A DNA stretch of 64,000 nt from a virus. Lineage: Duplodnaviria; Caudoviricetes. The notes beneath the pieces were generated by a model that had not been told where the DNA came from, ran no database searches, and saw nothing but the letters and a program-made list of their open reading frames with translations. Shown here piece by piece: positions 3,822 to 43,988 of the stretch (position 1 is the first letter of the stretch; each line of letters opens with the position of its first letter). A program made the translations under genes and the position numbers. The stretch spans positions 1 through 64,000 of IMG/VR virus record IMGVR_UViG_3300028284_000003. One strand, given 5' to 3'.

Positions 3822-4123
3822 TAACTTATTTCTCCTTTATCTTCTATTAACTCTATTGCGTCTTCATCTTCTTTTTTCATTTGACAGGTAGCGCAACATC
3901 CATCTGCCCCATGAGTAATTTGCAATGGCTGAAACATAGCAACTAACATTGCCATCATTAAACCCATAAAATGCATTATTCTTTTCATGATTTATTACTA
4001 TAATGAGTATATAGCCCCCAAATACAGTAGCCTAAAACTACAAATAATAATATCTCTGGTATTATTACAGTTGTTATTAAACCGGCAATAATGAGTACCA
4101 TCCACATTAAGACTATTTCTTCT

Positions 4124-4405
4124 TTATTTTTCATATTCTAATTTTAAAAGTTGATTTGTTTTCATATTTACCCAATCCTCATCTTTTTCAGGATTTCTAA
4201 CATGTAGTAATTCATGAACAATTGATTCTTCACAAAGATCTATGTCGTGATAAATAGTGCCCTCCTTTTTATCAAAGTCTCTTTCAATAGCAACAAAGTA
4301 AGTTTCACCGCTATATTCTATTTGTTCCGGTAATATTCTTTCTGTTTTTATTTGCCAATCACTGATTCCAAATCTCAATTGCCACTTTTTTATTAGGAGT
4401 TCCAT
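4124..4405 (-). CDS. Small HEXXH metallopeptidase-like protein
   Basis: IVHELLH motif. Confidence 0.55.
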   Translation of the reverse strand: MELLIKKWQLRFGISDWQIKTERILPEQIEYSGETYFVAIERDFDKKEGTIYHDIDLCEESIVHELLHVRNPEKDEDWVNMKTNQLLKLEYEK

Positions 4406-4411
4406 CTATAA

Positions 4412-4437
4412 TTATATGATGGAATATAGGTTTGTTT
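4412..4437 (-). promoter_or_regulatory. AAAC-N16-ATATAA promoter (middle/ECF type)
   Basis: Plus strand TTATAT-N16-GTTT, just upstream of start 4405. Confidence 0.65.
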
Positions 4438-4627
4438 AATCTTCTATACAATCATTCATGCGTAAAATGAGTTGATCTCGCATCCAATTAAGTTCCTTTA
4501 ATGCATGTTCGGAAAGGCGATAACTACTCATTAGTGTATTTTCTAATTTATCAAGCTCTCTTTTGTTATCATAATAAATATGTTTCATATCTTCTCTAAT
4601 ATTTCCGAATTTAACTCTTCTAGCCAT
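4436..4627 (-). CDS. Hypothetical protein
   Basis: 63 aa ORF downstream of pckA. Confidence 0.5.
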   Translation of the reverse strand: MARRVKFGNIREDMKHIYYDNKRELDKLENTLMSSYRLSEHALKELNWMRDQLILRMNDCIED

Positions 4628-4636
4628 TGTTTACAT

Positions 4637-6190
4637 TTATTTTTTAATAGATTTATAATTTTCTTCAAATTGTTGCTGTAAAAATAATGCTTTTTTATCA
4701 TATTCTTCCCTGTCTTTCCAAGTTTCCTTTGGTATTAATACCTCTCCAGGAACATTAGGACATTCAATTGGCATTTTTAAACCAAATACTTTATGTGTAG
4801 CATATTCTACGTTGTCTAGCCATCCCTCTAAGGCAGCATTAATCATTGCTCTAGTATATTTTAGACTCATGCGCTCACCAACCCCATAAGGGCCTCCAGT
4901 CCAACCTGTATTAATTAACCATACATTGACATTTGACTCTTCCATTTTATCACCTAACATTTCTGCATATTTCATCGGGTGTAGTGGTAAAAATGGTGCT
5001 CCATAACAACTTGAAAACGTAGTCGTAGGCTCATCTATGCCATCTTCTGTACCTGCAACCTTTGCAGTATATCCAGAAATAAAATGGTACATTGCTTGCT
5101 CTTTATCTAATTTTGAAATAGGAGGTAAAACTCCAAATGCGTCTGCTGTTAAAAAGAAGATATTTTTAATATTATCACCCTTTGCACCTTCTGCTAAATT
5201 ATCAATATACTTTAATGGATAACTAACTCTTGTATTTTCAGTAATATCAGACCTTGTAAAATCCGGTTCATTAGTACCTTCTTTAAAAATTATATTTTCT
5301 AAAATTGCACCTGCTTTAATTGCGTTCCATATATCTGGCTCTTTCTCTTTTGAAAGATCAATACATTTTGCATAACATCCACCTTCAAAATTAAAAATTG
5401 TATTTTCATACCAACCATGTTCATCGTCTCCAATTAACATTCTATTTGGATCAGCAGACAATGTAGTTTTACCAGTACCTGAAAGTCCAAAAAATACAGC
5501 AGTATCTCCTCTTTTTCCAACATTAGCAGAACAATGCATTGATAATACATCATGTTTAACTGGTAATACAAAATTTAAAACTGAAAAAATACCTTTCTTA
5601 ATTTCACCAGTATATCCGGTACCTCCAATTAAAATAATCTTTTTTGTAAAATTAATAATTGCAAAGTTTTCTTGCCTAGTTCCATCAACTGTTGGATCTG
5701 CATCGAAACCTGGTATATTAATTAATTGCCATTCTGGTATAAAATTAGCTATTTCTTCTTCTTTGATGTTATTAAGCATATTACTTGCAAAGTGATTTGA
5801 CCATGCAAATTCATTAATAACTCTAACATTTAACTTAAATTCATTTACAGAACATGCATATACATCCCTAACATAAACTTCTTTGTTTTTAAGATATTTA
5901 AGCATTTTTTGATGTAATTGATCAAACTTATCTTCATTAAACGCAATATTAATATCGCCCCAATCTACAACTTCTCTTGTAACATCATCTTTAACGATAA
6001 ATCTATCCTTTGGCGATCTACCTGTAAATTTACCAGTTTTAATAGATAATGCACCTGTAGAAGTAAGCTCTCCTTGTTCTTTTTCTAATGTAATTTTAGT
6101 AAGCTCATCGGCTGTTAAATTCCAATAGGCGGCTTTAAGTCCTTTTATATTTAAGCTTAAATTATTAGGCATGTTTCCGTGATTTTTCAT
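4637..6190 (-). CDS. pckA: Phosphoenolpyruvate carboxykinase (ATP)
   Basis: TGRSPKD, YTGEIKK, MHCSAN, GLSGTGKTTLS, LIGDDEHGW and EGGCYAK motifs; full length. Confidence 0.97.
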   Translation of the reverse strand: MKNHGNMPNNLSLNIKGLKAAYWNLTADELTKITLEKEQGELTSTGALSIKTGKFTGRSPKDRFIVKDDVTREVVDWGDINIAFNEDKFDQLHQKMLKYLKNKEVYVRDVYACSVNEFKLNVRVINEFAWSNHFASNMLNNIKEEEIANFIPEWQLINIPGFDADPTVDGTRQENFAIINFTKKIILIGGTGYTGEIKKGIFSVLNFVLPVKHDVLSMHCSANVGKRGDTAVFFGLSGTGKTTLSADPNRMLIGDDEHGWYENTIFNFEGGCYAKCIDLSKEKEPDIWNAIKAGAILENIIFKEGTNEPDFTRSDITENTRVSYPLKYIDNLAEGAKGDNIKNIFFLTADAFGVLPPISKLDKEQAMYHFISGYTAKVAGTEDGIDEPTTTFSSCYGAPFLPLHPMKYAEMLGDKMEESNVNVWLINTGWTGGPYGVGERMSLKYTRAMINAALEGWLDNVEYATHKVFGLKMPIECPNVPGEVLIPKETWKDREEYDKKALFLQQQFEENYKSIKK

Positions 6191-6282
6191 AGATTATATA
6201 TTAAAAGCTACTCTCCATGAAGGGCCTTAGAGGCTAAAATAACATAATCTTAGATTATAAGATTTTATTATTTTAATAAATG

Positions 6283-6307
6283 AAAAAAGGGCCACTAAGG
6301 GCCCTTT
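6283..6307 (-). terminator. Rho-independent terminator after the collagen-like gene
   Basis: Minus strand AAAGGGCC-CTTAGT-GGCCCTTTTTT. Confidence 0.8.
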
Positions 6308-6325
6308 AATTCTGTTTTAATTATT

Positions 6326-7600
6326 TTACATTTCTGTAAGATTAAACTTATACTTTTTACCAGTATTTCTATTAATTAAAAATAAATCGTCGCTTCCTTC
6401 TTGAATTGACCAGTGACCTGAAGTTCCATCAACCTCATTTTGTCTACCTTCGTTATTTAAATTAATATCACCTACTAATAAATTAGGAGTTTTAATCTGA
6501 TTTCCTTCAGCCTTAATCCAAGTGTCTCCAATGTACATTGAATTATCAGATAAGAAAAGGTGTCTAATTTTATATTCAGCATTTCCTAAATCATATTGTT
6601 CATTTGTGTCTGGTATAATAGATGCAGTCATTGTACCTCCCATATCTGAAGATTCTCCTTTATCACCTTTTTGTCCTTGATTTGCAGCAGTACCATCAAG
6701 CCCAGCTTCTCCTTTTTCACCTTTAGCTCCATCGACTCCAATAACACCATCTTGGCCGGCTTCACCTTTATCTCCTTCTTGGCCAACGAGTACAAAATAT
6801 ACAGCACAATCTCCTGAAGTAACCCCTATATCACCATATGATACATTATACACATCAAATTTATAATTTCCATTACTGTCTATATTTGCTCCTATAATTT
6901 GAAAAACATTAATGTGCTGAGGATTAGCATTAAGTATTGTTTTAATTTGACCTGATTTAGTGTTTAAATATTGATCTAAGAATATTGATTGATCTGTACC
7001 GTCTTCGTCTTCTTTATGAAATGTTAAGCTTGTGATTCCTAGATATGCTGGTTCTCCACTCCATGCAAATTCGCCAGCTTGTGGTACAAAACCTGTAGTT
7101 TGACCATCCCATGAAAATTGACCGGATTGTACTATTCCTGATTCACCTTTATCACCTTTTTGACCAGAACCTCCAATAGTTCCAATGTTTCCTTGATTAA
7201 TTTGTCCACTAAATGCTAAAAGACTCGCTCCTCCTTGATCTAAACCATCACTTGGATCGCTATCTATTAAAAGATTTCCAGAAAGACCAGTAACTCTAAT
7301 TTCAGCAGCATCAAATGCTAAAGTCATCGTTTGAAAATAATATTTAGTAACATCTTCTACCCATCCTAGACTTATTGAAGATTTATTATTAATTTCACCA
7401 AGAGACTCCCATGATTCTGTAGTATTAACCCATCTCCAAATAGTATAATGACCTTCCTTTAAAAGAACTGAAATACCAGATTGGTCTGCTGATTTTGAAA
7501 CACCAAATGATGCATCTATAGGTACATCTTGGCCAACTACTAATGGATTTTCTACTTGAGTAAATTTATTAGGTTTGTTTAAAGAATATTGTAATTCCAT
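6326..7600 (-). CDS. Collagen-like virion fibre protein
   Basis: Gly-X-Y tracts (GQKGDKGES, GDKGEAGQDG..GAKGEKGEAG). C-terminal NEVDGTSGHWSIQEG..LFLINRNTGKKYKF domain typical of marine myophage fibres. Late-type motif upstream. Confidence 0.75.
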   Translation of the reverse strand: MELQYSLNKPNKFTQVENPLVVGQDVPIDASFGVSKSADQSGISVLLKEGHYTIWRWVNTTESWESLGEINNKSSISLGWVEDVTKYYFQTMTLAFDAAEIRVTGLSGNLLIDSDPSDGLDQGGASLLAFSGQINQGNIGTIGGSGQKGDKGESGIVQSGQFSWDGQTTGFVPQAGEFAWSGEPAYLGITSLTFHKEDEDGTDQSIFLDQYLNTKSGQIKTILNANPQHINVFQIIGANIDSNGNYKFDVYNVSYGDIGVTSGDCAVYFVLVGQEGDKGEAGQDGVIGVDGAKGEKGEAGLDGTAANQGQKGDKGESSDMGGTMTASIIPDTNEQYDLGNAEYKIRHLFLSDNSMYIGDTWIKAEGNQIKTPNLLVGDINLNNEGRQNEVDGTSGHWSIQEGSDDLFLINRNTGKKYKFNLTEM

Positions 7601-7617
7601 AATAAAAATGTTTATTT

Positions 7618-7626
7618 TTATATATC
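7618..7626 (-). promoter_or_regulatory. GATATATAA late-type promoter motif
   Basis: Same motif precedes tail tube and tape-measure genes. Confidence 0.55.
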
Positions 7627-7628
7627 AA

Positions 7629-8387
7629 CTACCAATACCACAATCTACCGTTGTCTCCAGTAAATGCCAATATTTTCCAACTTAATTCCTTAGGCGTTAA
7701 TTTATTTTTCCAAAGCCAATATTGAATTAGTCTTTCACAGCTTCTATCGTTTTCTTTAGTGTTTTCTAAAACAAAATTCCAAAAGTCTACAAATTCTTCA
7801 AGTCTATTAATCCCAAATGCAAAACAAAAACTAGGAGTCCAATTCATTTCCCAAGGTTCTTGACCAGGCATCATTAAGTCTTTATAGGCCCAATGTTCTT
7901 TATCTGGATTAGGAGCATCCCATATTTTTTTAAAATAAACATCACTTTTGTTTATTAAATCAGTTCCACAATTCTCAGTTAAATTATATCTGCCTGAAAG
8001 TTTTACTATATAATCATAGTTTTTTAATTCGTCTTTATAATGTTTTAAAAATGTAGAATATAATAAGGCTTCACAATACGACTTATTTTCATGAGTATTT
8101 AAAATAACTGTTTTTTGTGCATCTACCTCTGCGAGTCTTATACATTCTAAATCTTTAGCTTTCCATAAATGTTCATATTGAAATAATAATTCACCTGCAG
8201 CTTCAGTATCTAAAGACGCATCAACTACGTATACCTTAGCATTTGGATAAATTGCATAAATAGAATTAATAGCAAATGTCGTATGTGAATGTCTTTCTCT
8301 ATCTGAAAAATAACTTCGGTTTTCAGTATAGTCAAATTTTCCAGAATTTGATATTAGTACAGAACCAATAATAAAAACAGGTTTCAT
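7629..8387 (-). CDS. Glycosyltransferase-like protein (KLSGRY family), paralogue of 10265..11020
   Basis: Shares R..xT...INSI...Y/F, VD/E.S and KLSGRY with 10265..11020. Confidence 0.5.
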   Translation of the reverse strand: MKPVFIIGSVLISNSGKFDYTENRSYFSDRERHSHTTFAINSIYAIYPNAKVYVVDASLDTEAAGELLFQYEHLWKAKDLECIRLAEVDAQKTVILNTHENKSYCEALLYSTFLKHYKDELKNYDYIVKLSGRYNLTENCGTDLINKSDVYFKKIWDAPNPDKEHWAYKDLMMPGQEPWEMNWTPSFCFAFGINRLEEFVDFWNFVLENTKENDRSCERLIQYWLWKNKLTPKELSWKILAFTGDNGRLWYW

Positions 8388-8947
8388 TTAGTTTGTTTTT
8401 TCTTAAAATAAGTCCTATCCTTCTCTTCTATATAACCTTTACTTTGTTTGATAAGGTCATATTGTAGCTCAGTATAGCTAACTTGCATTTTATTTTTTTG
8501 TAAATTATTCCAAATCCATTTTTTCATAGGAGCACATCTTTTAAATGAATTTATTTTATCTTTATTTTCAACGAATTCTCTAGCATAATTATTAAATTCT
8601 CCTTGTGAATGTTTTTTATGCCAATTTATTCTATCTTCACTTTTAGTGATTTCATGGTCATTTCTCATCATAAATACTATTAAGGTGTCTTTATTATCAA
8701 TGGTATGTAATTTATGAGAAAGAGCAGGTGCTTGTATAACTACTGGCTCCTTTCCAATATATGTTAACATTTTATTTATTTGACATATACCATGTTCAAA
8801 CTCGTCAACTTGTCTATAATTTAATTCAGTGGCTAATTCTACTGAAACATAAGTCGTACCAGATCTTTGAGGTCCTGATATTATAATGTATTTATAATTC
8901 TTACAATATTCTTTAAAATATGCCCAGTTTTTTACATTAATCACCAT
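8384..8947 (-). CDS. Sulfotransferase-family protein
   Basis: IISGPQRSGTTY 5'-PSB loop and a downstream FMMRN motif. Confidence 0.7.
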   Translation of the reverse strand: MVINVKNWAYFKEYCKNYKYIIISGPQRSGTTYVSVELATELNYRQVDEFEHGICQINKMLTYIGKEPVVIQAPALSHKLHTIDNKDTLIVFMMRNDHEITKSEDRINWHKKHSQGEFNNYAREFVENKDKINSFKRCAPMKKWIWNNLQKNKMQVSYTELQYDLIKQSKGYIEEKDRTYFKKKQTK

Positions 8948-8949
8948 TT

Positions 8950-10278
8950 CTATATGTTAGAGTTTTGTTTAATAAATGAGACTGTAATATATCTACGACC
9001 TGAATAAATTGGCCTTGCACCATGTCTATGTGTAATTTGACCAGGATGAATTGTTGCAGTTCCTACTCTCTCTGGATTTGACAATAAACCATATTTAGGA
9101 AAGTAAGTTCCACCTCCATCAAACTCATCATTTAACTTTACAACAAGACTTAAATGACTGTGATCATGGTGTAATGCTAAATGTGACTGTGCATCTGGTA
9201 AATACTTAACTAAAAAGTTTTCGTTATTTAATCTATCCCAACCTTTACCTTCAAGCTTCCAAATATGAATTGACATTGGTCTAATAATTTCATTTAAAAC
9301 CTTATCGTATATTTTATTCATGCCAATGTCTTGTAAAAGAACATCAGTTGTTGGATAGAATTTATGCCTTGCATGTGTCCAGTTGTTTAGTTCTTCTGTC
9401 ATTGCAATAATTTCATCACAGAAGGTTTTAGTAAACAGGGGAAACTCGTATACTTCATCTCCAATGTGATCTACTATCAAATCCCATTCACCTCGTTGAA
9501 TAATAGGATCTAAGTATCTTTGTTTCCATGTATCCCAATTAGAATCATCTAATATTTTATATTTTTTAAAAGGTTTACTATTTTCAGTTTGTGAAGTTTT
9601 TTTGTTTGAAGTTTGTGTAATATGTTCTCGTTTATGTGCATAAAAATTTAAAGTTGGCTTAAACAAGTCTGCTACGTCTTTTCTAAGATGTTTAATATAA
9701 GTTGCTGATAAAAATTCATCAGACGGTATTATATTATTTAAGAAGTCATATTTTAATATTTTTTCTAGGCCGCTTCTTGTTAAACAATATGATTGTGTAT
9801 TATAACTATAACTTGCTTTAAGCCAGTTTTTGCCTACCTCTTCCTCAACTGTATTTGGATTTACCTTATTTCTACCTAAATAAAAGCCATCTACGTTTTC
9901 TGGTAAATCACTTAAATCTAAATTTTCTAATGAATGTATAGGGTTAAAGTCTTCTTCTAAAAACAGGCAAAGATCATGACCTTCTTTATAAGCTTGCTTC
10001 CACATAAGATAATGACTTATTGCACATCCAATCTCTCCTTCTAAAATAGGTCTGTTCCACCAACTATTGGGATGATCCTTTAATTCCCATGATGAAAAAG
10101 GTTTCCACTTAATATCAGTGTTTGTTCCATTTACTCCTACTACAATTTCCCATTTAAACTTGTTTGGAATATTAAGACTGTGTAATTTATTTTTAAGCTT
10201 TTCGTTTTTAGAGTTTAAATTTAAAACAAAGGCCTTGTCAATTTGTTTAATTTTTTTATTTAAATTATAAATAGACAT
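8950..10278 (-). CDS. Fused GT25 (collagen galactosyltransferase-like) plus 2OG-Fe(II) lysyl hydroxylase (PLOD-like)
   Basis: GT25 half: GEIGCAISH..W, FLEEDF, YLGR, YSY..Y, IPSDEFL. PLOD half: FPLF..FCDE, PTTD, NFLVKY.PD.Q..L..HHD, EFDGGG, HPGQITH.H.....GRRYITVSF. Confidence 0.85.
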   Translation of the reverse strand: MSIYNLNKKIKQIDKAFVLNLNSKNEKLKNKLHSLNIPNKFKWEIVVGVNGTNTDIKWKPFSSWELKDHPNSWWNRPILEGEIGCAISHYLMWKQAYKEGHDLCLFLEEDFNPIHSLENLDLSDLPENVDGFYLGRNKVNPNTVEEEVGKNWLKASYSYNTQSYCLTRSGLEKILKYDFLNNIIPSDEFLSATYIKHLRKDVADLFKPTLNFYAHKREHITQTSNKKTSQTENSKPFKKYKILDDSNWDTWKQRYLDPIIQRGEWDLIVDHIGDEVYEFPLFTKTFCDEIIAMTEELNNWTHARHKFYPTTDVLLQDIGMNKIYDKVLNEIIRPMSIHIWKLEGKGWDRLNNENFLVKYLPDAQSHLALHHDHSHLSLVVKLNDEFDGGGTYFPKYGLLSNPERVGTATIHPGQITHRHGARPIYSGRRYITVSFIKQNSNI

Positions 10279-11020
10279 AATTGTTTTCTCCTATATTTGC
10301 AAAAATTCCTAATTCATTAACTTCCTTAACGTTTTTCTTATTTAATTTTTTATATAAACTATGTTCAATATCAATATACCCTATATTATTAAATATTTCT
10401 TTAATCTCTTTTTCTAAATCTATAAACAAATCTTTAGTTTCATTTAATAATTTCTTGCCAACACTCCAACAAAAACAAGGATATACTTTATCTATTTTAA
10501 CTTGAGGTTGATTACTAGTAATACTTTTATAAAAAATCATTTTATTAGTATTATGTTGAGAAATATCAAATGTAGGAGACAGGGAATATCTTCCTGATAA
10601 CTTAAATACTCTATCATATTTACTCAAATCATGATTACTTAAAATTTCTTTAAAAACATAACTTTCTGTTCTATTTTTTAAGAATGTAAGTTTTAAATTA
10701 TCTTTAAATTTTATGTTAACATTATTTTTTTTACAATATTCATATGAATAGTTAACAGACTCTTTTATAAAAATACCAATATTAGTATCTCTTGAAAATG
10801 ATTTTATTTTGACATTTTTAGGTAGAGTATTTATTAAATAGCTACTAATTGATTTATAACTAGACTCTAATAACCATATTTCTGCATTATTGAAATTAGC
10901 ATTAATACTATTAATAGTTCCTATAGTTTCAGTAAATCTAGCTATTTCATTATTTCCAAATAATGTGTTTACAGCAGAAGTAACTAAAAATAAAACTTTA
11001 CTATTTTTATCTAGAGACAT
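10265..11020 (-). CDS. Glycosyltransferase-like protein (KLSGRY family)
   Basis: FLVTSAVN..RF.ET..TINSI, FKLSGRY and DIEH motifs; very AT-rich. Confidence 0.5.
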   Translation of the reverse strand: MSLDKNSKVLFLVTSAVNTLFGNNEIARFTETIGTINSINANFNNAEIWLLESSYKSISSYLINTLPKNVKIKSFSRDTNIGIFIKESVNYSYEYCKKNNVNIKFKDNLKLTFLKNRTESYVFKEILSNHDLSKYDRVFKLSGRYSLSPTFDISQHNTNKMIFYKSITSNQPQVKIDKVYPCFCWSVGKKLLNETKDLFIDLEKEIKEIFNNIGYIDIEHSLYKKLNKKNVKEVNELGIFANIGENNYVYL

Positions 11021-11167
11021 TCTTTACTAGTAAAATTTTCTAATTCTAATTGCTTCTTAGAATATAAATTATTTTGAAGAGTGCAGCTTTTTAAAATAGA
11101 AGAAGTTAGCATTATTGAAAATAAAACTAAAACCATCGTTGCTAATTTTTTCATAAGTTTTTAAATA

Positions 11168-11193
11168 TTATATAAAAAAATAAAAAAATGTTT
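11168..11193 (-). promoter_or_regulatory. AAAC-N16-ATATAA promoter
   Basis: Exact TTATAT-N16-GTTT. Confidence 0.65.
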
Positions 11194-11194
11194 A

Positions 11195-11647
11195 TTAACT
11201 TAAATATTTTTCAATATCACTATGTAAAGATTCATCTACCATAGATTTCCAATCTTCATTTCCTTCTTGAATAGATGCTCTAATCTTAGTAGCAGAAATA
11301 AACATTGCTCCAGAATCTTTAGGTGGCATATATTCATTAATCTCATATCCTACTCCTCTTCCATAATTTACAGACTCTATATCTGGTATAATCATTACCT
11401 CAACATCATCTCCCTTTGCTGCATGGTATTTCTTAATCATATCTACCGTTTGTTCAGTTGTAAATGGATTTTTTTCATCAGGTTCTATGTCTCTAACCAT
11501 AATTAAAGCTGGAACCCCTTCATTTAGTTTTTGATTAATTAATTCAATATGTCCAAAATGGTAAGGTTGGTATCTTCCAACAAATATTGCATATTTTTTA
11601 TCTACGTTCTTAGTTGGCTCTCCGCCGTGATTATTTTTATCCCACAT
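11195..11647 (-). CDS. HxGH nucleotidyltransferase (cytidylyltransferase/NMNAT-like), candidate minimal ATP sulfurylase
   Basis: FVGRYQPYHFGH, NPF, YGRGVGY and ISATKIR motifs; sits in a sulfation operon. Confidence 0.7.
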   Translation of the reverse strand: MWDKNNHGGEPTKNVDKKYAIFVGRYQPYHFGHIELINQKLNEGVPALIMVRDIEPDEKNPFTTEQTVDMIKKYHAAKGDDVEVMIIPDIESVNYGRGVGYEINEYMPPKDSGAMFISATKIRASIQEGNEDWKSMVDESLHSDIEKYLS

Positions 11648-11663
11648 TTTATTTAGTTTATTT

Positions 11664-12428
11664 TTAATATTTATAGTTAAATTTTTCTATTTCTTCTTTA
11701 TATAACTCTGTAATTGCGTCTATACAAAACTGTTTATCATCTTCTTGTTCTTCATAGAATTTTCTATATGTTTCATCATTTTCTTTAGTAGAATTATAAT
11801 TACCTAGAGATTTATGTTCTATGCCTATTTTTTCACAAACATATTTCCAATCTTTATCTAATGTTTCAAGTTTGCCTACAAAATCTAATTGATCCATATT
11901 AATTAACGCAGTCTGAGGAGCCCAGTGTTCGTTCCAATACTTAGTTTCATCATCTCTTAATAATAATTCTAAAAACTCTCTAAAACTAATCCAAGGAGCC
12001 CTTTCGTGGTGAAAATCTAATCCTCTTTCCAGCATAAATTTAGGAGTTTTATAATCTCTATAGTATCCATCAACTTTATTTCTATAGCAACTTGATATTC
12101 TATCCCATGGATTTCTTACAAATGCAAAGACAAAATAATCAGCAGGATAACTTTTTCTATTACCACGTCTTATACCAAGAGGTGCTATAAGCTCAGGATC
12201 ATTATCAAATTCTCCAGGAAATTCTTTTATCCCAGTCCATTCTTTAAATTCTTTTTCATCGAATGCCTCAGGATCTTGTTCCTGTAATTCATGTAACATA
12301 TGTATTAAAATACTTCTACTTGCGACTTTAGGAGTTCTAAACCATGCAAATTTATATTTATGTGAGGTTGTAAATGGTAAAGTTAAATACTTCTTTGCGG
12401 GTTTAAATATTTTTCTTTTTTCTAACAT
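11664..12428 (-). CDS. Carbohydrate sulfotransferase (Sulfotransfer_2, CHST/HNK-1ST-like)
   Basis: PKVAS, FVRNPWDRISSCY, HWAPQ and DFVGKLETL..D motifs. Confidence 0.88.
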   Translation of the reverse strand: MLEKRKIFKPAKKYLTLPFTTSHKYKFAWFRTPKVASRSILIHMLHELQEQDPEAFDEKEFKEWTGIKEFPGEFDNDPELIAPLGIRRGNRKSYPADYFVFAFVRNPWDRISSCYRNKVDGYYRDYKTPKFMLERGLDFHHERAPWISFREFLELLLRDDETKYWNEHWAPQTALINMDQLDFVGKLETLDKDWKYVCEKIGIEHKSLGNYNSTKENDETYRKFYEEQEDDKQFCIDAITELYKEEIEKFNYKY

Positions 12429-12440
12429 TTTATTCTAAGT

Positions 12441-13613
12441 TTATTTTTTTATCTTTGGATGATTTTTAATTTCTTCTAAACATTGTTCCCAATTTCTAAA
12501 TAAGAATCCTCTATCATCTATATAAACAGTTGCTGGAAATTTATGATTACTTATCTCATCAATGAGGTGATCCATTTTATATTTTTCTAACCATTTTTTA
12601 ATAACATGTGCAGGTCTTGAAGATAATATTTTTAATACGAATCCTTCTTTAATAAATCCTTCTAGGGCTTCTTTAGTTCCTTCTTTTGGTGGATCGTATG
12701 CATTTTCAAGTCCTTGAAAACCTTTAGAGTAGTCATGAATAACTCCATCAAAGTCAATTGATAACGTTTTTTTCTTATCAAGGTTATTAACTTCTTTAAT
12801 TGTAGATAGCATTTGATTTTTATCTAAATAATCTATTAAATAATCAACTGAATCTTCTATATTTAAATTATCTAATCTTAACTCTGCGTTTAATGGCTCT
12901 TCATAAGGAGCATCAATACCTGTAAATCCTTTAATTTCACCAGCTCTTGCTTTTTTATAAAGTCCTTTAGGATCTCTACTTTCACAAACGTCAAGTGGAG
13001 TGTCTATAAATACTTCAACAAAATCTTCACCTATTATTTCTCTAGCAAAATCTCTATCTTCTCTATAAGGTGAAATAAATGCAGTTAATACAATTGTTCC
13101 TGAATCTGCAAAAAGTTTTGCAACCTCACTTATTCTTCTAATATTTTCTTTTCTATCTTCAGGTGAAAAACTAAGATCTCCATTTAGACCCATTCTAATG
13201 TTATCACCATCTAAGATATATGTTTTTAAGTTTCTTCCATTTAATACCTCATCAAGTGCATTTGCAATTGTTGATTTACCACTACCTGAAAGTCCAGTAA
13301 ACCAAAGCACTCTACCTGGATGCCCTGTTACCTTTTGTCTTTGTTCTTTACTTACTGTAAAGTTATGTTTAGTTAAGTTAGTTGCCATTCTTTTTTTTCT
13401 TTTTATTCCTATATTGCTGAATTTATACCAAAGCCTTTCATGGGCATAATACAAAAACATTTTAGTAAATAATTCAGCTCCTCCAATTGATAGTCCAATT
13501 AAAGGATTGCCACTGATTATCCAACTTAAAATTATAGTATCTATTGTTCCTAAAACTCTCCAAGTAAACGTCTTTAAAAGATGTCTTTTTATAGATATTT
13601 TTTCGGAGCTCAT
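12441..13613 (-). CDS. cysC: DUF2061 - adenylyl-sulfate kinase - HAD phosphatase fusion
   Basis: N-terminal [15 protein letters not shown]. Kinase [36 protein letters not shown]-terminal IDFDGV..SSR..YIDDR. Confidence 0.9.
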
Positions 13614-13632
13614 TAAGTATAGATTTTTTTCT

Positions 13633-13641
13633 TTATATATC
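13633..13641 (-). promoter_or_regulatory. GATATATAA late-type promoter motif
   Basis: About 20 nt upstream of cysC; a variant AAAC-N16-ATATTA lies at 13655-13680. Confidence 0.55.
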
Positions 13642-13695
13642 AGAATTTAATACTTAATATAGCGATATGATGTGTTGTTTGATAATTTATTTAAA

Positions 13696-14049
13696 CTATC
13701 TGTTAAATAAATTATCTAATATTTTTAATTTTAATTTATCAATTATTGTGAATGTTTTTGGATTCCATAATTCTCTATCATTTAACCTATCATATATTTT
13801 ATATAGAGGTCGATATAAATATAAAAAATCCCAATGGTCTATATGAAAGTGCTTAACCGTTGTTTTATTAGGCAACCTAAAGTAAAAGGCTAAAAGAGAA
13901 TGATCATAGAAATTAGCATTAAAATTTAAAACTCTAAAACCCCAAGACTCATGGTTATTATGTAGGTCTATCTGGAGTAAATCAAAACTATAATTCCATT
14001 TACGAGTTTTCCAACTTATTTTTTCTAAAATACTATTTACTATACCCAT
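13696..14049 (-). CDS. Hypothetical protein
   Basis: 117 aa ORF in operon. Confidence 0.6.
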   Translation of the reverse strand: MGIVNSILEKISWKTRKWNYSFDLLQIDLHNNHESWGFRVLNFNANFYDHSLLAFYFRLPNKTTVKHFHIDHWDFLYLYRPLYKIYDRLNDRELWNPKTFTIIDKLKLKILDNLFNR

Positions 14050-14362
14050 CTATTATTTTTTTAATTTTAGCACATTTCTCATATTCTTCTTGTTCTTCAA
14101 AATGTTCTAATAGCTCTTCTAAGTTTTCTTTTTGAATATCTGTTGGATCAAATGGATAAACTATAAAATCTTGATTTTCACTAGCATAATTTACCTCAAT
14201 ATTTTCTGTATTATTAGAAGTATAGATTGCAGTATGTTCTAACAAGTATTCTTCAAATGTTTTACCACTGGTAACTATATTATACATGACATCCATTGAT
14301 GCGCACCAATCATAGATAAAATCTTCATCTTTAAAATCAGGATAATCGTCAAATATGTCCAT
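14033..14362 (-). CDS. Protein with C-terminal UVR (UvrB/C)-like motif, paralogue 1
   Basis: YPFDP..LLEHFEEQEEYEKCAKI. Confidence 0.6.
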   Translation of the reverse strand: MDIFDDYPDFKDEDFIYDWCASMDVMYNIVTSGKTFEEYLLEHTAIYTSNNTENIEVNYASENQDFIVYPFDPTDIQKENLEELLEHFEEQEEYEKCAKIKKIIDGYSK

Positions 14363-14571
14363 TATATAATTGAATTAACAAACTGTTCAACTGTTTCATT
14401 ACTTGAATTAAAATCTTCTAAAAGTCTTTTTAAACCCTTTCTAGAAAAGGTAAATAGGGTTTCATCGGTTACTTTATGATCATAAGGAGCTTTATATGTA
14501 GTATCCTTAGTTTGCCTTAATTCATCTAAAGTTCTTTTCTTTAATGATAATGCTATTTTATCTTGTTTCAT
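14362..14571 (-). CDS. Hypothetical protein
   Basis: 69 aa ORF. Confidence 0.55.
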   Translation of the reverse strand: MKQDKIALSLKKRTLDELRQTKDTTYKAPYDHKVTDETLFTFSRKGLKRLLEDFNSSNETVEQFVNSII

Positions 14572-14613
14572 ATTAGTTATATTAAAAATTATTTTTTTTT
14601 GTTTCTTCTTTAA

Positions 14614-14790
14614 TTATGCGTTTAATGTTGCCTGGATTTCATCTAAGAATATTTTGTCAGTCCACTCATGGCCACCTGCCAATTTTGCCGTACATCTCCA
14701 ACATGTTACCGCAACTGTATCTTTTCCTACATCTACTGAAGTGTTGCAATGTTTACAATTTAATTTTTTTGATGCGTTGTTACTTGCCAT
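14614..14790 (-). CDS. Small Zn-ribbon protein
   Basis: Manual translation, 58 aa: ..CKHC..AVTCWRC.. Confidence 0.6.
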   Translation of the reverse strand: MASNNASKKLNCKHCNTSVDVGKDTVAVTCWRCTAKLAGGHEWTDKIFLDEIQATLNA

Positions 14791-14897
14791 TCTTTGTTCT
14801 TTTTGAATTAATAATTGATTTATAAACCACTATTGGAAATGCTATTGGAAACATTATAATTGCAATTAAAACACCTAATATTCCTATAAAAAAATTC

Positions 14898-15032
14898 TTA
14901 ATCTTTTTCATTTCCTTTATGTTTAGTTTTTCTAGTATATTTTTTTTTATTTTTATAGACGTTAGGCCTCATTGCATCGTAAATTTCCTTTATGGTAACG
15001 CTAATGTGTTGTAAGCCTTTTCTATCTTTCAT
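14898..15032 (-). CDS. Small basic ArfA-like protein
   Basis: Manual translation MKDRKGLQHISVTIKEIYDAMRPNVYKNKKKYTRKTKHKGNEKD; directly after promoter 15038. Confidence 0.5.
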   Translation of the reverse strand: MKDRKGLQHISVTIKEIYDAMRPNVYKNKKKYTRKTKHKGNEKD

Positions 15033-15285: not shown

Positions 15286-15371
<86 letters not shown>

Positions 15372-15381
15372 GTTTTTTTTG

Positions 15382-15455
15382 CGGTCTGGACGAGACTCGA
15401 ACTCGCGACCCCTGCAGTGACAGTGCAGTATTCTAACCAACTGAACTACCAGACC
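15382..15455 (-). tRNA. tRNA-Asp(GUC)
   Basis: CTGCA-CTGTCAC-TGCAG anticodon arm, GTTCGAGTC; no CCA. Confidence 0.95.
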
Positions 15456-15474
15456 GTTAAACTATATATCAGTG

Positions 15475-15548
15475 TAGGCGGTGCTGGATTTGAACCAGCG
15501 ACCTCTACATTATCAGTGTAGCGCTCTAACCAACTGAGCTAAACGCCT
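15475..15548 (-). tRNA. tRNA-Ile(GAU)
   Basis: CTACA-CTGATAA-TGTAG anticodon arm; one acceptor-stem mismatch; no CCA. Confidence 0.92.
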
Positions 15549-15557
15549 GTAATAAAA

Positions 15558-15628
15558 TTACCGGGGAAGGATTCGAACCTCCGTTACCTGGACCAAAACC
15601 AGGAGTCCTGCCGCTAGACGACCCGGTA
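15558..15628 (-). tRNA. tRNA-Gln(UUG)
   Basis: CCTGG-TTTTGGT-CCAGG anticodon arm; no CCA. Confidence 0.93.
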
Positions 15629-15637
15629 TTAAAGAAA

Positions 15638-15709
15638 TACTCCGTAGGGGAATCGAACCCCTGTTTTATGGATGAAAACCATATGTCCTAACCCCTAGAC
15701 GAACGGAGC
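15638..15709 (-). tRNA. tRNA-Glu(UUC)
   Basis: TATGG-TTTTCAT-CCATA anticodon arm; no CCA. Confidence 0.93.
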
Positions 15710-15723
15710 AAATTTATTGATTA

Positions 15724-19146: not shown

Positions 19147-19269
19147 GAGGTGTCCTATAACTTGACCGGCAGTCTTGTGAACGAGAAAGGATTCGAACCT
19201 TTGACCGATAGCTTAGAAGGCTATTGCTCTATCCAACTGAGCTACTCGTCCGTGAGTATAGGACACCTC
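19147..19269. repeat. Perfect 13 bp inverted repeat enclosing tRNA-Arg
   Basis: GAGGTGTCCTATA (19147-19159) and TATAGGACACCTC (19257-19269). Confidence 0.85.
19178..19251 (-). tRNA. tRNA-Arg(UCU)
   Basis: ATAGC-CTTCTAA-GCTAT anticodon arm; no CCA. Confidence 0.95.
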
Positions 19270-19864: not shown

Positions 19865-19875
19865 TTTATTTATAG

Positions 19876-19959
19876 TACCCAGGGCGGGACTTGAACCCGC
19901 ACGAACAAATGTCCACAAGATTTTAAGTCTTGCGTGTCTACCAATTCCACCACCTAGGC
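19876..19959 (-). tRNA. tRNA-Leu(UAA)
   Basis: CAAGA-CTTAAAA-TCTTG anticodon arm, long variable arm; no CCA. Confidence 0.95.
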
Positions 19960-25869: not shown

Positions 25870-26076
25870 TTATTGATGTACTAAAAAACTAGCACTATGT
25901 ACTTGTTCTATATATTCTAGTTTATTTTTATTAAACCAATCAACGACAATCTCTTTCATCTTAATTGAATTACCTGTGATTATTTCTGCATTTTTAATAT
26001 TTTTCCAGAAAAGTGCCTCTGCTAATACTGCTTCTACCTCACCATGTCTAATCCCATGTAAGTCTATCTTTGTCAT
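25870..26076 (-). CDS. Stand-alone Smr-domain-like protein
   Basis: KIDLHG..IITGNS. Confidence 0.65.
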   Translation of the reverse strand: MTKIDLHGIRHGEVEAVLAEALFWKNIKNAEIITGNSIKMKEIVVDWFNKNKLEYIEQVHSASFLVHQ

Positions 26077-42115: not shown

Positions 42116-42128
42116 AATTTTTATTTAG

Positions 42129-42202
42129 AGCCTTTGGAGGGACTCGAACCCACGACCTGCTGATTACAAATCAGCTGCTCTAGCCAGCTGAGCTACAAAG
42201 GC
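42129..42202 (-). tRNA. tRNA-Thr(UGU)
   Basis: GCTGA-TTTGTAA-TCAGC anticodon arm; no CCA. Confidence 0.95.
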
Positions 42203-43901: not shown

Positions 43902-43914
43902 AATTTAAAAATAG

Positions 43915-43988
43915 TGGAGGATATCGGAGTCGAACCGATGACCTCCTGCGTGCAAGGCAGGCGCTCTAGCCAGCTGAGCTAATCCCCC
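43915..43988 (-). tRNA. tRNA-Ala(UGC)
   Basis: GGGGGAT/ATCCTCC acceptor with G3:U70; CCTGC-CTTGCAC-GCAGG anticodon arm; no CCA. Confidence 0.96.

Follow-up and report, generated by a model that had tools for sequence, protein, structure and literature searches.

The 64,000-nt window analysed here comes from a large marine uncultured T4-like myovirus and contains a block of eight genes, including one for a collagen-like fibre and one for a 442-aa protein. Judged from its sequence, this protein is a COLGALT-type GT25 glycosyltransferase joined to a PLOD/L230-type lysyl hydroxylase (LH) with intact active sites, and such GT25/LH fusions are associated with collagen-like fibre genes well over the control rate. 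We read the block as a fibre-decoration island of a marine T4-like myovirus, in which the fibre would be modified at its lysines and a sulfate module would serve the island's product; for this whole chain, taken loosely, we estimate a probability of about 0.5. The phage itself probably decorates its fibre with sugars, and it may sulfate those sugars.

Layout of the block

The record is a 107.6-kb phage, in which tail sheath and gp23 capsid genes were found. As seen in Table 1, the eight ORFs between positions 6326 and 13641 of the window all lie on the minus strand, in agreement with the original prediction in coordinates and orientation. The motif GATATATAA was located before both cysC and the fibre gene, as predicted; all of its 10 copies in the window are on the minus (coding) strand, where 2.46 copies were expected in total (none of 100 shuffles reached 10). 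Its designation as late-type, in the sense of a timing class, was a guess from the genes following the motif, and no result supports it. A terminator-like hairpin does close the block, at 6286-6307 rather than 6283; it lies 18 nt past the fibre stop codon and is the sole terminator-like hairpin on the minus strand within 4000-15000. The 14-nt and 4-nt overlaps listed in Table 1 and the 2-nt gap between the GT25/LH and p187 genes, together with a motif at each end and a single terminator, suggest an operon.

Table 1. Features of the block (window coordinates)
Feature	Position	Strand	Remarks
Intrinsic-terminator-like hairpin	6286..6307	-	8 pairs (5 G-C), then T run; closes block
Collagen-like fibre, 424 aa	6326..7600	-	PF01391, 29.4 bits; C-terminal phage tail-fibre module
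GATATATAA promoter-like motif	7618..7626	-	17 nt upstream of fibre ATG
p252, putative glycosyltransferase with GT-A fold, 252 aa	7629..8387	-	Overlaps p187 by 4 nt
p187, P-loop protein without Walker-A lysine, 187 aa	8384..8947	-	Probable small sulfotransferase
GT25/LH fusion, 442 aa	8950..10278	-	COLGALT1-type GT25, about residues 13-201; collagen lysyl hydroxylase, about residues 243-437
p251, weak p252 paralogue, 251 aa	10265..11020	-	GT-A-like by inference; overlaps GT25/LH start by 14 nt
Small HxGH nucleotidyltransferase, 150 aa	11195..11647	-	CTP_transf_like, PF01467, 4.6e-7
ST2, Sulfotransfer_2-family carbohydrate-type sulfotransferase, 254 aa	11664..12428	-	PF03567
CysC fusion, 390 aa	12441..13613	-	DUF2061 membrane segment, APS kinase, HAD-like C-terminal domain
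GATATATAA promoter-like motif	13633..13641	-	19 nt upstream of cysC ATG

The GT25/LH fusion and the collagen-like fibre

In domain searches, the fusion matched GT25 (PF01755; E, 5.8e-11) and an OGFOD2-like domain. Among solved structures, the LH domain matched mimivirus L230 (6ax6; 3.7e-26) and human LH3 (6fxk; 5.5e-25), and far more weakly the prolyl hydroxylases (0.017), while the GT25 domain matched COLGALT1 (9u7j; 2.2e-16) and solved bacterial GT25 only at 0.05. The PLOD/COLGALT identity originally proposed from sequence motifs is borne out; these motifs are present, and in the alignments they fall opposite their counterparts in COLGALT1 and LH3/L230. The Fe triad (H825/D827/H877) and 2OG ligands (Y814/R887) given for L230 in PMC5802723 align with H370, D372, H419, Y359 and R429 of the fusion, with equal spacing barring a 3-residue alignment gap. 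Similarly, the EDD motif (435-437), the DE catalytic base (D522/E523) and C412 given for GLT25D1 in PMC12987934 align with E108-E109-D110, D187-E188 and C85, the window's copy having E109 where GLT25D1 has D436. Residues Y359, H370, D372, H419, R429, C85, E108, D110, D187 and E188 were invariant in 26 sequences. Because all catalytic residues checked are kept across these relatives, the GT25 domain appears to be selected as an active transferase on the hydroxylysine hydroxyl.

The fibre scored 29.4 bits against PF01391, barely over the cut-off of 27.2, and its Gly-X-Y runs are short (residues 137-157, 273-305 and 309-317; 7, 11 and 3 triplets). Exactly seven G-x-K-G sites were counted, as the original prediction had it, at residues 146, 149, 276, 291, 294, 309 and 312 (in order GQKG, GDKG, GDKG, GAKG, GEKG, GQKG and GDKG), which take up 7 of the fibre's 23 lysines; the sequence recognised by GLT25D1 is described as Xaa-Hyl-Gly (PMC12987934). 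Residues 353-423 matched the tail fibre family phrog_892 (5.2e-11), and the C-terminal coding end shares 71-75% DNA identity with cyanophage genes, one of them annotated "virion structural protein."

Carriers of the fusion are T4-like phages. Of 22 viral loci, 15 had a collagen-like ORF no more than 10 kb from the fusion, compared with 1 of 18 control loci; after de-replication, the counts were 8/11 and 1/13 (Fisher p=0.0022). In the collagen ORFs near the fusion, Lys occupied the Y position 226 times and the X position 10 times (L005, L010, L013-L017, L019 and L022 summed). One locus, L015, holds in order two collagen genes, one unassigned ORF, a P4H-type oxygenase, a GT4 and the GT25/LH gene. 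Lys-poor collagen ORFs also adjoin the fusion, with 1 Lys in 98-100 triplets in L016, L018 and L020 and 0 in 32 in L019, all of them cut at the locus ends. The seven loci with no collagen ORF in the flank were L011, L012, L021, which ends at a contig edge, and L023-L026, each with an LH domain by itself on a short fragment. In one of the five records of these loci (G001, which carries L011), a collagen match was found about 15 kb away.

Among the closest known systems is mimivirus L230 (Acanthamoeba polyphaga mimivirus; PDB 6ax6/6ax7), the best solved-structure match, which has the Fe triad and 2OG Tyr/Arg in common with the phage LH domain. Both are viral enzymes that carry hydroxylase and glycosyltransferase in one polypeptide, L230 being a bifunctional lysyl hydroxylase/hydroxylysine glucosyltransferase for the virus's own collagen-like proteins, an action that is predicted for the phage. 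However, L230 belongs to a giant virus of amoebae, has about 895 aa and carries an LH3-type transferase half that adds glucose, whereas the 442-aa protein has a COLGALT-type GT25 and comes from a tailed bacteriophage with sulfation genes alongside. Homology extends to human LH3/PLOD3 and GLT25D1/COLGALT1 (PDB 6fxk, 8zgc, 9evj and 9u7j) in both catalytic domains, including the motifs and ligands aligned above, and their substrate, Xaa-Lys/Hyl-Gly, recurs at the seven fibre sites. The human enzymes are two separate multidomain ER proteins in complex, whereas the phage fuses just two catalytic modules, lacking the GT and accessory domains of LH3 and the noncatalytic N-terminal domain of GLT25D1.

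Sulfation genes and accessory proteins

The APS kinase and carbohydrate-type sulfotransferase of the original prediction are both present. The CysC fusion matched PF01583 (E, 3.7e-70) and TIGR00455 (260.7 bits; cut-off, 138.7), with PF09834 for its DUF2061 segment (8e-20), and its tail matched HAD_2 (0.0081; residues 276-354) and phrog_1238 (6.5e-17; residues 261-385); its predicted role is to make PAPS from APS. ST2 matched PF03567 over the full length (1.8e-24; profile positions 3-252 of 252), as the single such match across the 107.6-kb record, and phrog_3347, "Galactose-3-O-sulfotransferase" (4.6e-13). Characterised members of its family are known to act on sugars.

We also observed a conserved partnership between the HxGH nucleotidyltransferase and phage APS kinases, an association that is new here. 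Of 11 loci anchored on the nucleotidyltransferase, 9 had an APS-kinase-domain match immediately upstream of it, and of 24 anchored on cysC, 19 had the nucleotidyltransferase as the next gene downstream. This succession resembles bifunctional PAPS synthases (APS kinase plus ATP sulfurylase), and phrog_10255 is apparently a fused form. ATP sulfurylase has the same HxxH nucleotidyltransferase fold class; however, no similarity to PF01747 was detected in the 150-aa protein, and its closest solved structures are NMN adenylyltransferases (2qjt; 8.1e-6). Candidate functions are a noncanonical ATP sulfurylase (sulfate adenylyltransferase) and an NMN adenylyltransferase.

By sequence, p187, p251 and p252 gave no significant family match. 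The description of p187 as a sulfotransferase holds as a probable one. All 10 of its best named Atlas clusters are sulfotransferase families, its relative P0314 exceeds the Sulfotransfer_3 cut-off, and Sulfotransfer_3 was matched in 8 of 15 members, every time below threshold; GPQRSGT, R95 and S103 are invariant in the family. Nevertheless, fold matches to its structure model (pLDDT, 92.7) were led by kinases, with sulfotransferases at ranks 15 and 37; p187 may instead be a glycan kinase. The two ORFs originally called GT-like do agree with a GT-A fold, although neither has a DxD motif (none is at the usual position in p252). The p252 model (pLDDT, 86.9; pTM, 0.88) gave GT6 ABO transferases (E, 1.4e-6; TM, about 0.54), glycogenin and B3GNT2 as top Foldseek matches in PDB, pointing to a putative role in glycan extension. 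No match to p251 was found in Pfam, PHROG or NCBIfam; by BLASTP it resembles p252 (E, 2e-4; 25% over 154 aa), with an invariant K-L-S-G-R-Y block in common.

Proposed pathway and competing readings

From homology and gene context, the 2-oxoglutarate/Fe(II) LH domain would convert the Y-position Lys of the Gly-X-Lys-Gly sites into 5-hydroxylysine, and the inverting, Mn-dependent COLGALT1-type GT25 domain would add a hexose, probably galactose, to its hydroxyl. Both steps would be carried out by one polypeptide in the host cytoplasm, and we consider their action on the fibre likely. The translationally coupled p251 and p252, with their GT-A-like folds, might then extend the sugar, and the Sulfotransfer_2 enzyme, probably with p187, could sulfate the glycan from PAPS. 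The latter would be supplied by the APS kinase fusion, with APS either drawn from the host or produced by the neighbouring nucleotidyltransferase, which would then act as a sulfate adenylyltransferase. That extension and sulfation act on this fibre glycan is a tentative proposal, to which we give somewhat less than even odds. Of the pathway originally proposed, the enzyme and its collagen association stand, and transfer of the sulfate to the hydroxylysine glycan of the fibre is inferred. Mimicry of algal glycans bound by Bacteroidota SusC/D systems gained no supporting result, and psbA was present in none of five records.

The sulfation arm itself (APS kinase fusion, Sulfotransfer_2 and probable p187) is real; since it also occurs elsewhere without collagen or the fusion, its target here is putative. 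The block might instead combine two adjoining modules, with GT25/LH acting on fibre lysines and cysC, ST2, the nucleotidyltransferase, p187 and perhaps p251/p252 acting on another glycan, carried by Ser/Thr of virion proteins, another fibre or the host envelope during infection. Elsewhere, cysC and the nucleotidyltransferase occur as a pair within glycan islands that also carry GT2, GT10, ST2, SDR and epimerase genes, the fusion being absent within 6-8 kb in all 35 cysC or nucleotidyltransferase loci and collagen likewise absent nearby. Relatives of p187 are fused to GT2, GT1-type and methyltransferase domains, and at 75 loci outside the window's clade they have RmlB/GMD-like (18), ST2-like (5) and APS kinase (3) neighbours, with a marginal collagen run in 2 and the full fusion in none. 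Four distant GT25/LH carriers had no APS kinase or Sulfotransfer_2 in the sequence covered, and in the close relative G010 a distance of about 15 kb, which includes a tRNA synthetase gene, separates the PAPS trio from the block. The expected co-occurrence with collagen in other phages holds for GT25/LH; the sulfation genes also occur without it. However, G010 keeps ST2-p251-GT25/LH-p187-p252-fibre between syntenic flanks; in both lineages, p251, p187 and p252 are interleaved and translationally coupled with GT25/LH in a unit ending in the fibre gene, and ST2 directly precedes p251 despite differing accessory genes. We consider two separate modules rather unlikely.

It is quite improbable that the fusion acts on other protein lysines or a host surface glycan, its nearness to collagen reflecting a general tail-fibre region layout. 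Relatives are annotated as [quoted passage not shown] L011 and L012 have unrelated neighbours, and an LH domain standing alone is present in phage fragments that show no collagen in the sequence covered. Against this, COLGALT1 is a far better match for the GT25 domain than any solved bacterial GT25, the nearest matches of the LH domain are the two collagen lysyl hydroxylases whose activity has been demonstrated by experiment, collagen co-occurs well above the control, and Lys is restricted to the Y position.

Conceptual precedent exists for sulfating the hydroxylysine hydroxyl directly, with sugars in a minor role or none. Iyer, Abhiman, de Souza and Aravind (2010; PMC2938197) predicted bacterial operons with a dioxygenase, a sulfotransferase, a PAPS synthetase and a collagen-like/tail-collar protein, in which, as proposed here, a collagen- or fibre-like protein would be hydroxylated and the hydroxyl elaborated by PAPS-dependent sulfation; as described there, the operons are a prediction, include no GT25 and imply direct sulfation. 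A literature search found no publication on a collagen-type Lys hydroxylation, glycosylation and sulfation pathway in phages, as the original prediction had held, but because of these operons the concept is less unprecedented than it stated. The presence of two sulfotransferase candidates within the block, and the fact that p187 belongs to no carbohydrate-specific family, would suit direct sulfation, which we nonetheless regard as most improbable given the catalytic residues of GT25 kept across 26 relatives and the galactose sulfotransferase label of ST2 in PHROG.

Organization of the block and its flanks

The source record spans 107,642 bp at an estimated completeness of 37%. The window, its first 64 kb, has about 30% G+C and bears nearly all genes on one strand. 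Phage markers in the record include a tail sheath (phrog_34521, 2.4e-83) and a T4-type gp23 capsid protein, and a DNA ligase and a tRNA nucleotidyltransferase are also encoded; psbA was found in none of five records, all of them incomplete. All eight ORFs that the original prediction placed in the block were recovered on the minus strand at the same coordinates. They are, in order, an APS kinase fusion (cysC fusion), a Sulfotransfer_2 protein of 254 aa (ST2), an HxGH protein (the nucleotidyltransferase), p251, a fusion of a GT25 domain with a lysyl hydroxylase domain (GT25/LH), p187, p252, and a collagen-like fibre of 424 aa. Their spacing is operon-like: 12 nt separate cysC from ST2 and 16 nt separate ST2 from the nucleotidyltransferase, followed by a 174-nt gap before p251; p251 and GT25/LH overlap by 14 nt, GT25/LH and p187 lie 2 nt apart, and p187 and p252 overlap by 4 nt.

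The terminator expected to close the block was found as a hairpin directly after the fibre stop codon, the sole terminator-like hairpin on the coding strand within positions 4000-15000. The promoter-like motif was likewise present, with one copy of GATATATAA 19 nt upstream of the cysC start codon and another 17 nt upstream of that of the fibre. Overall, GATATATAA occurs 10 times in the window, on the coding strand only, against 2.46 expected copies, and none of 100 shuffles reached 10. It lies 6-26 nt before an ORF start at all eight sites compared with ORF lists, and the ORFs that it precedes include a 1016-aa ORF and one adjoining the tail sheath. GATATATAA is probably a phage promoter element, and its position before cysC, the fibre and other large ORFs is consistent with co-expression with structural genes. 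Three seawater runs contain 6-13% of the block's sampled words, and their contigs match, at 90-100% identity, parts of the fibre, p252, GT25/LH (one 1006-nt contig), the nucleotidyltransferase and cysC; these runs are RNA libraries (one labelled RNA by guess) with possible DNA carry-over, and the matches are not a measure of transcription, strand or co-transcription.

Beyond the fibre terminator lies a full-length ATP-dependent phosphoenolpyruvate carboxykinase gene, at the place where the close relative G010 has methyltransferase, RmlB-like and RmlA-like genes. The window also carries nine tRNA genes, five of them clustered (Ser, Asp, Ile, Gln and Glu), and GT2-like genes occupy the position of this cluster in G010.

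Coordinates of the features discussed, in the window unless a locus is named
Feature	Coordinates	Strand	Basis
Eight-ORF block	6326-13641	minus	
cysC fusion, 390 aa	12441-13613	minus	
HAD-like tail of the cysC fusion	12441-12830	minus	
Nucleotidyltransferase, 150 aa	11195-11647	minus	
GT25/LH, 442 aa	8950-10278	minus	
Hairpin after the fibre	6286-6307	coding	
GATATATAA sites	7618, 13633, 18948, 33959, 37017, 40857, 44309, 47309, 60563, 62698	coding	motif count
Phosphoenolpyruvate carboxykinase	4637-6190		PF01293, E 3.2e-218
tRNA genes	15286-15710, 19177-19251, 19875-19959, 42128-42202, 43914-43988		
Second collagen-like tail fibre, 634 aa	28764-30668		
Glycosyltransferase near the second fibre	26048-27139	as the second fibre	phrog_3408, 1.2e-51
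Collagen genes to GT25/LH, distant T4-like phage	L015:1378-11311		
Stand-alone LH domain, 210 aa	L025:9986-10618		
Class I Glu/Gln-tRNA synthetase, G010	L148:12141-13673		PF00749, 7.5e-95

The GT25/LH fusion and its collagen-like neighbors

The original prediction read the 442-aa enzyme as a fusion of a COLGALT-type galactosyltransferase with a lysyl hydroxylase of the PLOD/L230 type, L230 being the mimivirus hydroxylase/glycosyltransferase. The N-terminal half matches PF01755 at 43.1 bits (gathering cut-off, 24), and residues 13-201 align with the C-terminal, catalytic domain of human COLGALT1 (GLT25D1) at 2.2e-16, compared with 0.05 for solved bacterial GT25 enzymes. The match spans chain residues 300-495 of 520 in 9u7j, and the noncatalytic N-terminal GT domain of COLGALT1 is missing from the fusion. 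According to passages of a 2026 paper on GLT25D1 (PMC12987934), the EDD motif at residues 435-437 binds ribose and Mn, the DE motif contains the catalytic base D522, C412 stacks the uracil, and the enzyme recognises Xaa-Hyl-Gly. In the fusion, E108-E109-D110, D187-E188 and C85 pair with E435-D436-D437, D522-E523 and C412 of the human enzyme. An alignment of 26 diverse relatives shows E108, D110, D187, E188 and C85 to be invariant; E109 is the exception, and the family consensus is LEDDF, i.e., EDD as in the human protein. The lid-loop motif STDE, which touches the pyrophosphate, falls beyond the end of the phmmer alignment, and the stretch around the invariant S229, with consensus S-T-I-E-N some 42 residues past the DE motif, may be its equivalent. 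The score above cut-off, the nearest solved relative and the matched EDD, DE and Cys residues bear out the GT25 assignment.

The C-terminal half (residues 243-437) was compared with all PDB sequences. The closest were L230 (3.7e-26) and human PLOD3 (LH3, 5.5e-25), followed by prolyl (4-)hydroxylases at 0.017, and the alignment to LH3 covers its residues 511-714. Y359, H370, D372, H419 and R429 of the fusion pair in the alignment with L230 Y814, H825, D827, H877 and R887, of which H825, D827 and H877 form the Fe triad and Y814 and R887 bind 2OG, as described in passages of Guo et al. 2018 (PMC5802723). All five residues are invariant in 26 of 26 aligned sequences. This half is therefore of the proposed hydroxylase type, with the Fe(II) triad and the 2OG-binding Tyr and Arg matched. 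The full PLOD architecture (GT, accessory and LH domains) is absent; the LH domain alone is present, and the N-terminal half is GT25.

The fusion architecture recurs in 242 metagenome protein clusters at E<=0.001, with lengths of 423-474 aa among the 120 matches listed, indicating that it is widespread in marine T4-like phages. The source names of 10 clusters of fusion relatives give nothing beyond 'hypothetical' or 'GR25 family'. A tblastn search of 50,697 deposited phage records yielded no full-length fusion: 11 records matched, through the 2OG half only and at 27-28% identity, and none covered at least 80% of the query. The distant carriers of the fusion are T4-like phages too, because the long sheath family phrog_34521 is present in 3/5 records and gp23 in 4/4. 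A giant-virus origin of these carriers was dropped for the same reason. The generic sheath family PF04984 was found in none of the five distant-carrier records, nor was the NCLDV capsid family PF04451, for which the control likewise gave no match and the result is uninformative. Loci L023-L026 are fragments of another phage type, 5-13% complete, with ClpP-like, ligase and HD-domain neighbors; they encode a stand-alone LH domain that is 83% identical to the LH half in the window, which suggests that the LH module was recently exchanged between phages. One cluster of fusion relatives (P0038, 48% identity) lies on a contig of 104,430,999 bases, long enough to suggest either a eukaryotic chromosome or a concatenated record.

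The fibre that closes the block matches PF01391 at 29.4 bits (cut-off, 27.2), contains Gly-X-Y runs of 7, 11 and 3 triplets, and matches phage tail-fibre families at its C terminus; its orthologue in G010 scores 44.7 bits. An exact count agreed with the seven G-x-K-G sites foreseen. We then asked how regularly collagen accompanies the fusion, a co-occurrence that had been proposed as a check, by scanning every ORF of at least 80 aa in 22 viral loci with fusion relatives for a run of at least five Gly-X-Y triplets. A collagen-like ORF shares the strand of the fusion and lies in its flank in 15/22 loci, compared with 1/18 control loci around two unrelated genes of the window (ligase and tRNA nucleotidyltransferase), the one positive being on the contig of G010 itself. 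When anchors at least 90% identical were collapsed, the association held at 8/11 versus 1/13 (Fisher p=0.0022; raw p=6e-5); the loci are partly redundant, and absences count for little because the records are fragmentary. Lysines in the fusion-adjoining collagen ORFs, summed over loci L005, L010, L013-L017, L019 and L022, fall 226 times at the Y position and 10 times at X. These counts favor the Y-position lysines of collagen-like proteins as the probable substrate. A target of the fusion other than collagen appears improbable; the loci to be set beside those counts are L011 and L012, which have unrelated neighbors (with a collagen ORF about 15 kb off in the record of L011), L021, which ends at a contig edge, and L023-L026, which show no collagen in the fragments sequenced. 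In several fusion-adjoining collagen ORFs that are cut short by the ends of their loci, Lys is found 0-2 times per 32-119 triplets.

The window encodes another collagen-like tail fibre, larger than the first, Pro-rich at X and Ser/Thr-rich at Y, with three G-S-K-G sites, on which the fusion could also act. A glycosyltransferase gene lies about 1.6 kb downstream of it.

Candidate genes for glycan extension and sulfation

Family scans gave no significant match for p251, p187 or p252. The proteins p251 and p252 are weak paralogues (BLASTP, 2e-4) that have an invariant K-L-S-G-R-Y block in common. The model of p252 (pLDDT 86.9) has 307 PDB matches at E<=0.001, led by GT6 ABO transferases (1.4e-6, TM ~0.54), GT8 glycogenin and GT31 B3GNT2, with TM values of 0.43-0.55, and p252 is accordingly modeled as a GT-A fold; p251 is linked to this predicted fold only through its BLASTP E value of 2e-4 to p252. 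The description of both as GT-like thus stands for the fold of the p252 model but not for the DxD motif, which is absent from both: the invariant K-L-S-G-R-Y occupies the expected position, and an acidic residue-x-Ser follows strand 2. The ESM Atlas matched p252 to WavE (score 0.91, 18% of members), a link that stays a lead because hhalign gave a probability of 0.3% for both p251 and p252 against the WavE-like proteins flanking an ST2 in viral locus L155.

For p187, the model (pLDDT 92.7) has a P-loop, NMP-kinase-like fold, and the PDB ranking places small kinases first (3e-4, TM ~0.4), with Teg12 at rank 15 and SULT4A1 at rank 37; among viral models, it matches P-loop kinases and unnamed proteins with TM values of 0.5 or below. 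Across 15 family sequences, G25-P-Q-R-S-G-T31, R95 and S103 are invariant and the Walker-A Lys is absent. We take this P-loop, together with R95 and S103, to fit the 5'-PSB and 3'-PB motifs by which sulfotransferases bind PAPS. Sulfotransfer_3 was hit in 8/15 of these sequences, Sulfotransfer_1 in 2/15 and AAA_18 in 9/15, all below cut-offs. All of the 10 best named ESM Atlas clusters are sulfotransferase families, and two of the 10, both small and viral (score 0.92), carry Sulfotransfer_3 on 96-100% of members. On balance, p187 is probably a sulfotransferase.

A profile search with p187 returned 1,236 representative clusters. Ten of the 13 listed relatives of at least 370 aa were scanned, giving GT2 plus GT1-type domains in two, methyltransferase domains in three, DUF1796 in one and nothing in four. 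In P0281, P0292, P0264, P0297 and P0314, the p187-like part is fused either to GT2 plus GT1-type domains (1263-1583 aa) or to methyltransferase domains, an arrangement reminiscent of glycan chain-modifying enzymes. The methyltransferase fusion P0314 reaches 28.0 for Sulfotransfer_3 (cut-off, 27).

The claim that ST2 is a CHST-like sulfotransferase is supported by a full-length PF03567 match (1.8e-24; 87.7 bits versus 22; profile positions 3-252 of 252) and by phrog_3347, 'Galactose-3-O-sulfotransferase'. ST2 had no solved relative at E<=0.01, and a pattern scan of viral contigs for its relatives matched five stretches, none of which was confirmed.

The cysC fusion consists of DUF2061, APS kinase (PF01583, E 3.7e-70) and HAD-like parts, and its equivalog-level matches are well above cut-off (TIGR00455, 260.7 bits versus 138.7; PRK03846, 276.8 versus 163). 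The C-terminal ~130 aa begin with a D-F-D-G-V motif and match HAD_2 (E 0.0081), phrog_1238 (6.5e-17) and, weakly, polynucleotide-kinase PHROGs; no solved relative was found (best E 0.074). This tail is missing from the G010 cysC, where only residues 1-276 match, and present in more distant loci, where matches reach 378-390. The tail might remove the 3'-phosphate of PAP.

The nucleotidyltransferase matches PF01467 at 4.6e-7. Among solved structures it is closest to NMN adenylyltransferases (8.1e-6), aligning over the N-terminal 70-90 residues only, and a role as NMN adenylyltransferase is the rival reading; its scores stay far below all NCBIfam equivalog cut-offs (best, PRK01153, 49.9 bits versus 127; TIGR01527, 42.6 versus 181.2). 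ATP sulfurylase belongs to the same nucleotidyltransferase fold class. The ATP sulfurylase family PF01747 has no match across the 107.6-kb record (37% complete), the nucleotidyltransferase included. Context was decisive here, and the protein was assigned to the PAPS arm because of its adjacency to APS kinase. In 11 viral loci anchored on the nucleotidyltransferase, the gene immediately before it matches the APS kinase domain in nine and the DUF2061 part only in two. Conversely, the nucleotidyltransferase lies directly downstream in 19/24 loci anchored on cysC, many of them near-duplicates. The two genes are often 5-150 nt apart, within glycan-synthesis islands (loci L129-L163), and phrog_10255 matches both proteins over different profile parts, suggesting that a fused form exists. 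Reading the nucleotidyltransferase as an unrelated NAD-salvage gene was dropped once the pairing with APS kinase was seen. From this gene neighborhood only, we infer a noncanonical sulfate adenylyltransferase, which would make the pair a candidate two-gene phage PAPS synthase.

Conservation, competing readings and precedents

G010, a 204,977-bp contig with an estimated completeness of 75%, has flanks syntenic with those of the window (75-96% identity in a translated-DNA comparison). The core common to both is ST2-p251-GT25/LH-p187-p252-fibre. Its divergence is mosaic: GT25/LH, p252 and the fibre C terminus are 92-97% identical, p187 62%, p251 58% and ST2 36-53%. G010 also carries a further ST2 and a short fibre paralogue of 244 aa, together with GT2 genes, a methyltransferase and genes resembling RmlB and RmlA. 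Its trio of cysC (without the HAD-like tail), ST2 and nucleotidyltransferase lies about 15 kb upstream of the core, separated from it by genes of no assignment, a Glu/Gln-tRNA synthetase gene and sugar genes.

We infer all of the readings that follow from sequence. The LH half would hydroxylate Y-position lysines of the phage's own collagen-like fibre(s), and the GT25 half would attach a hexose to the new hydroxyl, two steps to which we assign a probability of about 0.75. In the further steps, p251 and p252 may extend the sugar and ST2 and p187 may sulfate the glycan; this extension is tentative, at somewhat under even odds, because interleaving, translational coupling and conservation in two lineages are what speaks for it. 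The complete scheme, a metazoan-style Lys to Hyl to Gal-Hyl conversion on tail fibres by one 442-aa enzyme, with a glycan that is extended and sulfated using PAPS from a two-gene synthase with a new type of sulfate adenylyltransferase, is doubtful as a whole.

In the main alternative, which we regard as somewhat unlikely, the lysine module happens to adjoin a general sulfated-glycan module of phages. This reading gains from the p187 and cysC-nucleotidyltransferase loci elsewhere, which are mostly without collagen or the fusion. Among 75 p187 loci outside the window clade, a marginal collagen run was found in two, a GT25-only match in two, an ST2-like gene in five, APS kinase in three (adjacent in L101 and L103) and an RmlB/GMD-like gene in 18. 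The cysC-nucleotidyltransferase islands contain GT2, GT10, ST2, SDR and epimerase genes with no fusion nearby, and APS kinase and Sulfotransfer_2 were absent from 4/4 distant fusion carriers, whose records are incomplete. The sulfation genes are thus not specific to collagen. However, ST2 precedes p251 in the window and in G010 alike, which favors a functional link between the sulfation and lysine modules. Direct sulfation of hydroxylysine is very improbable; the matched catalytic residues of the GT25 half speak against it.

The original prediction held that no phage pathway of this form had been described. Full-text searches found no bacteriophage account of either lysyl hydroxylation or Hyl glycosylation (the supplementary data of Iyer et al. 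may list phage examples) and none of phage fibre sulfation, but precedents exist. The closest in print are mimivirus L230/R699 (in passages of PMC5802723 and PMC9546862) and the operons that Iyer et al. 2010 predicted in bacteria (in passages of PMC2938197). Passages of PMC9546862 and PMC12987934 treat collagen Lys hydroxylation and Hyl-O-glycosylation as hallmarks of the animal matrix, with giant viruses as the sole viral case. A fusion of both catalytic modules that keeps its active sites intact and lies beside phage fibre genes would extend this chemistry to bacterial viruses and the bacterial cytoplasm. The window adds to these precedents a compact block that includes PAPS genes, a six-gene core kept in a relative, class evidence for p187 and p252, and the APS kinase-nucleotidyltransferase pairing, whose conservation points to a possible new APS/PAPS route in phages. 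Fibres coated with sugar, and possibly sulfate, could alter adsorption, host range and virion stability in seawater. Glycosylated collagen cannot yet be produced in bacteria, partly because bacterial expression of the human collagen glycosyltransferases is difficult (in passages of PMC9546862), and a compact phage LH-GalT fusion, presumably functional in the bacterial cell, is a candidate tool for that purpose.

Two observations concern related loci. The class I Glu/Gln-tRNA synthetase gene of G010 lies between its PAPS trio and the fibre island. In the distant T4-like phage of locus L015, two collagen genes (799- and 955-aa frames) and a 463-aa ORF without assignment are followed by a P4H-type 2OG oxygenase (PF13640, 1.8e-14), a GT4 and GT25/LH, which would be a fuller collagen-maturation set with a possible prolyl hydroxylase.
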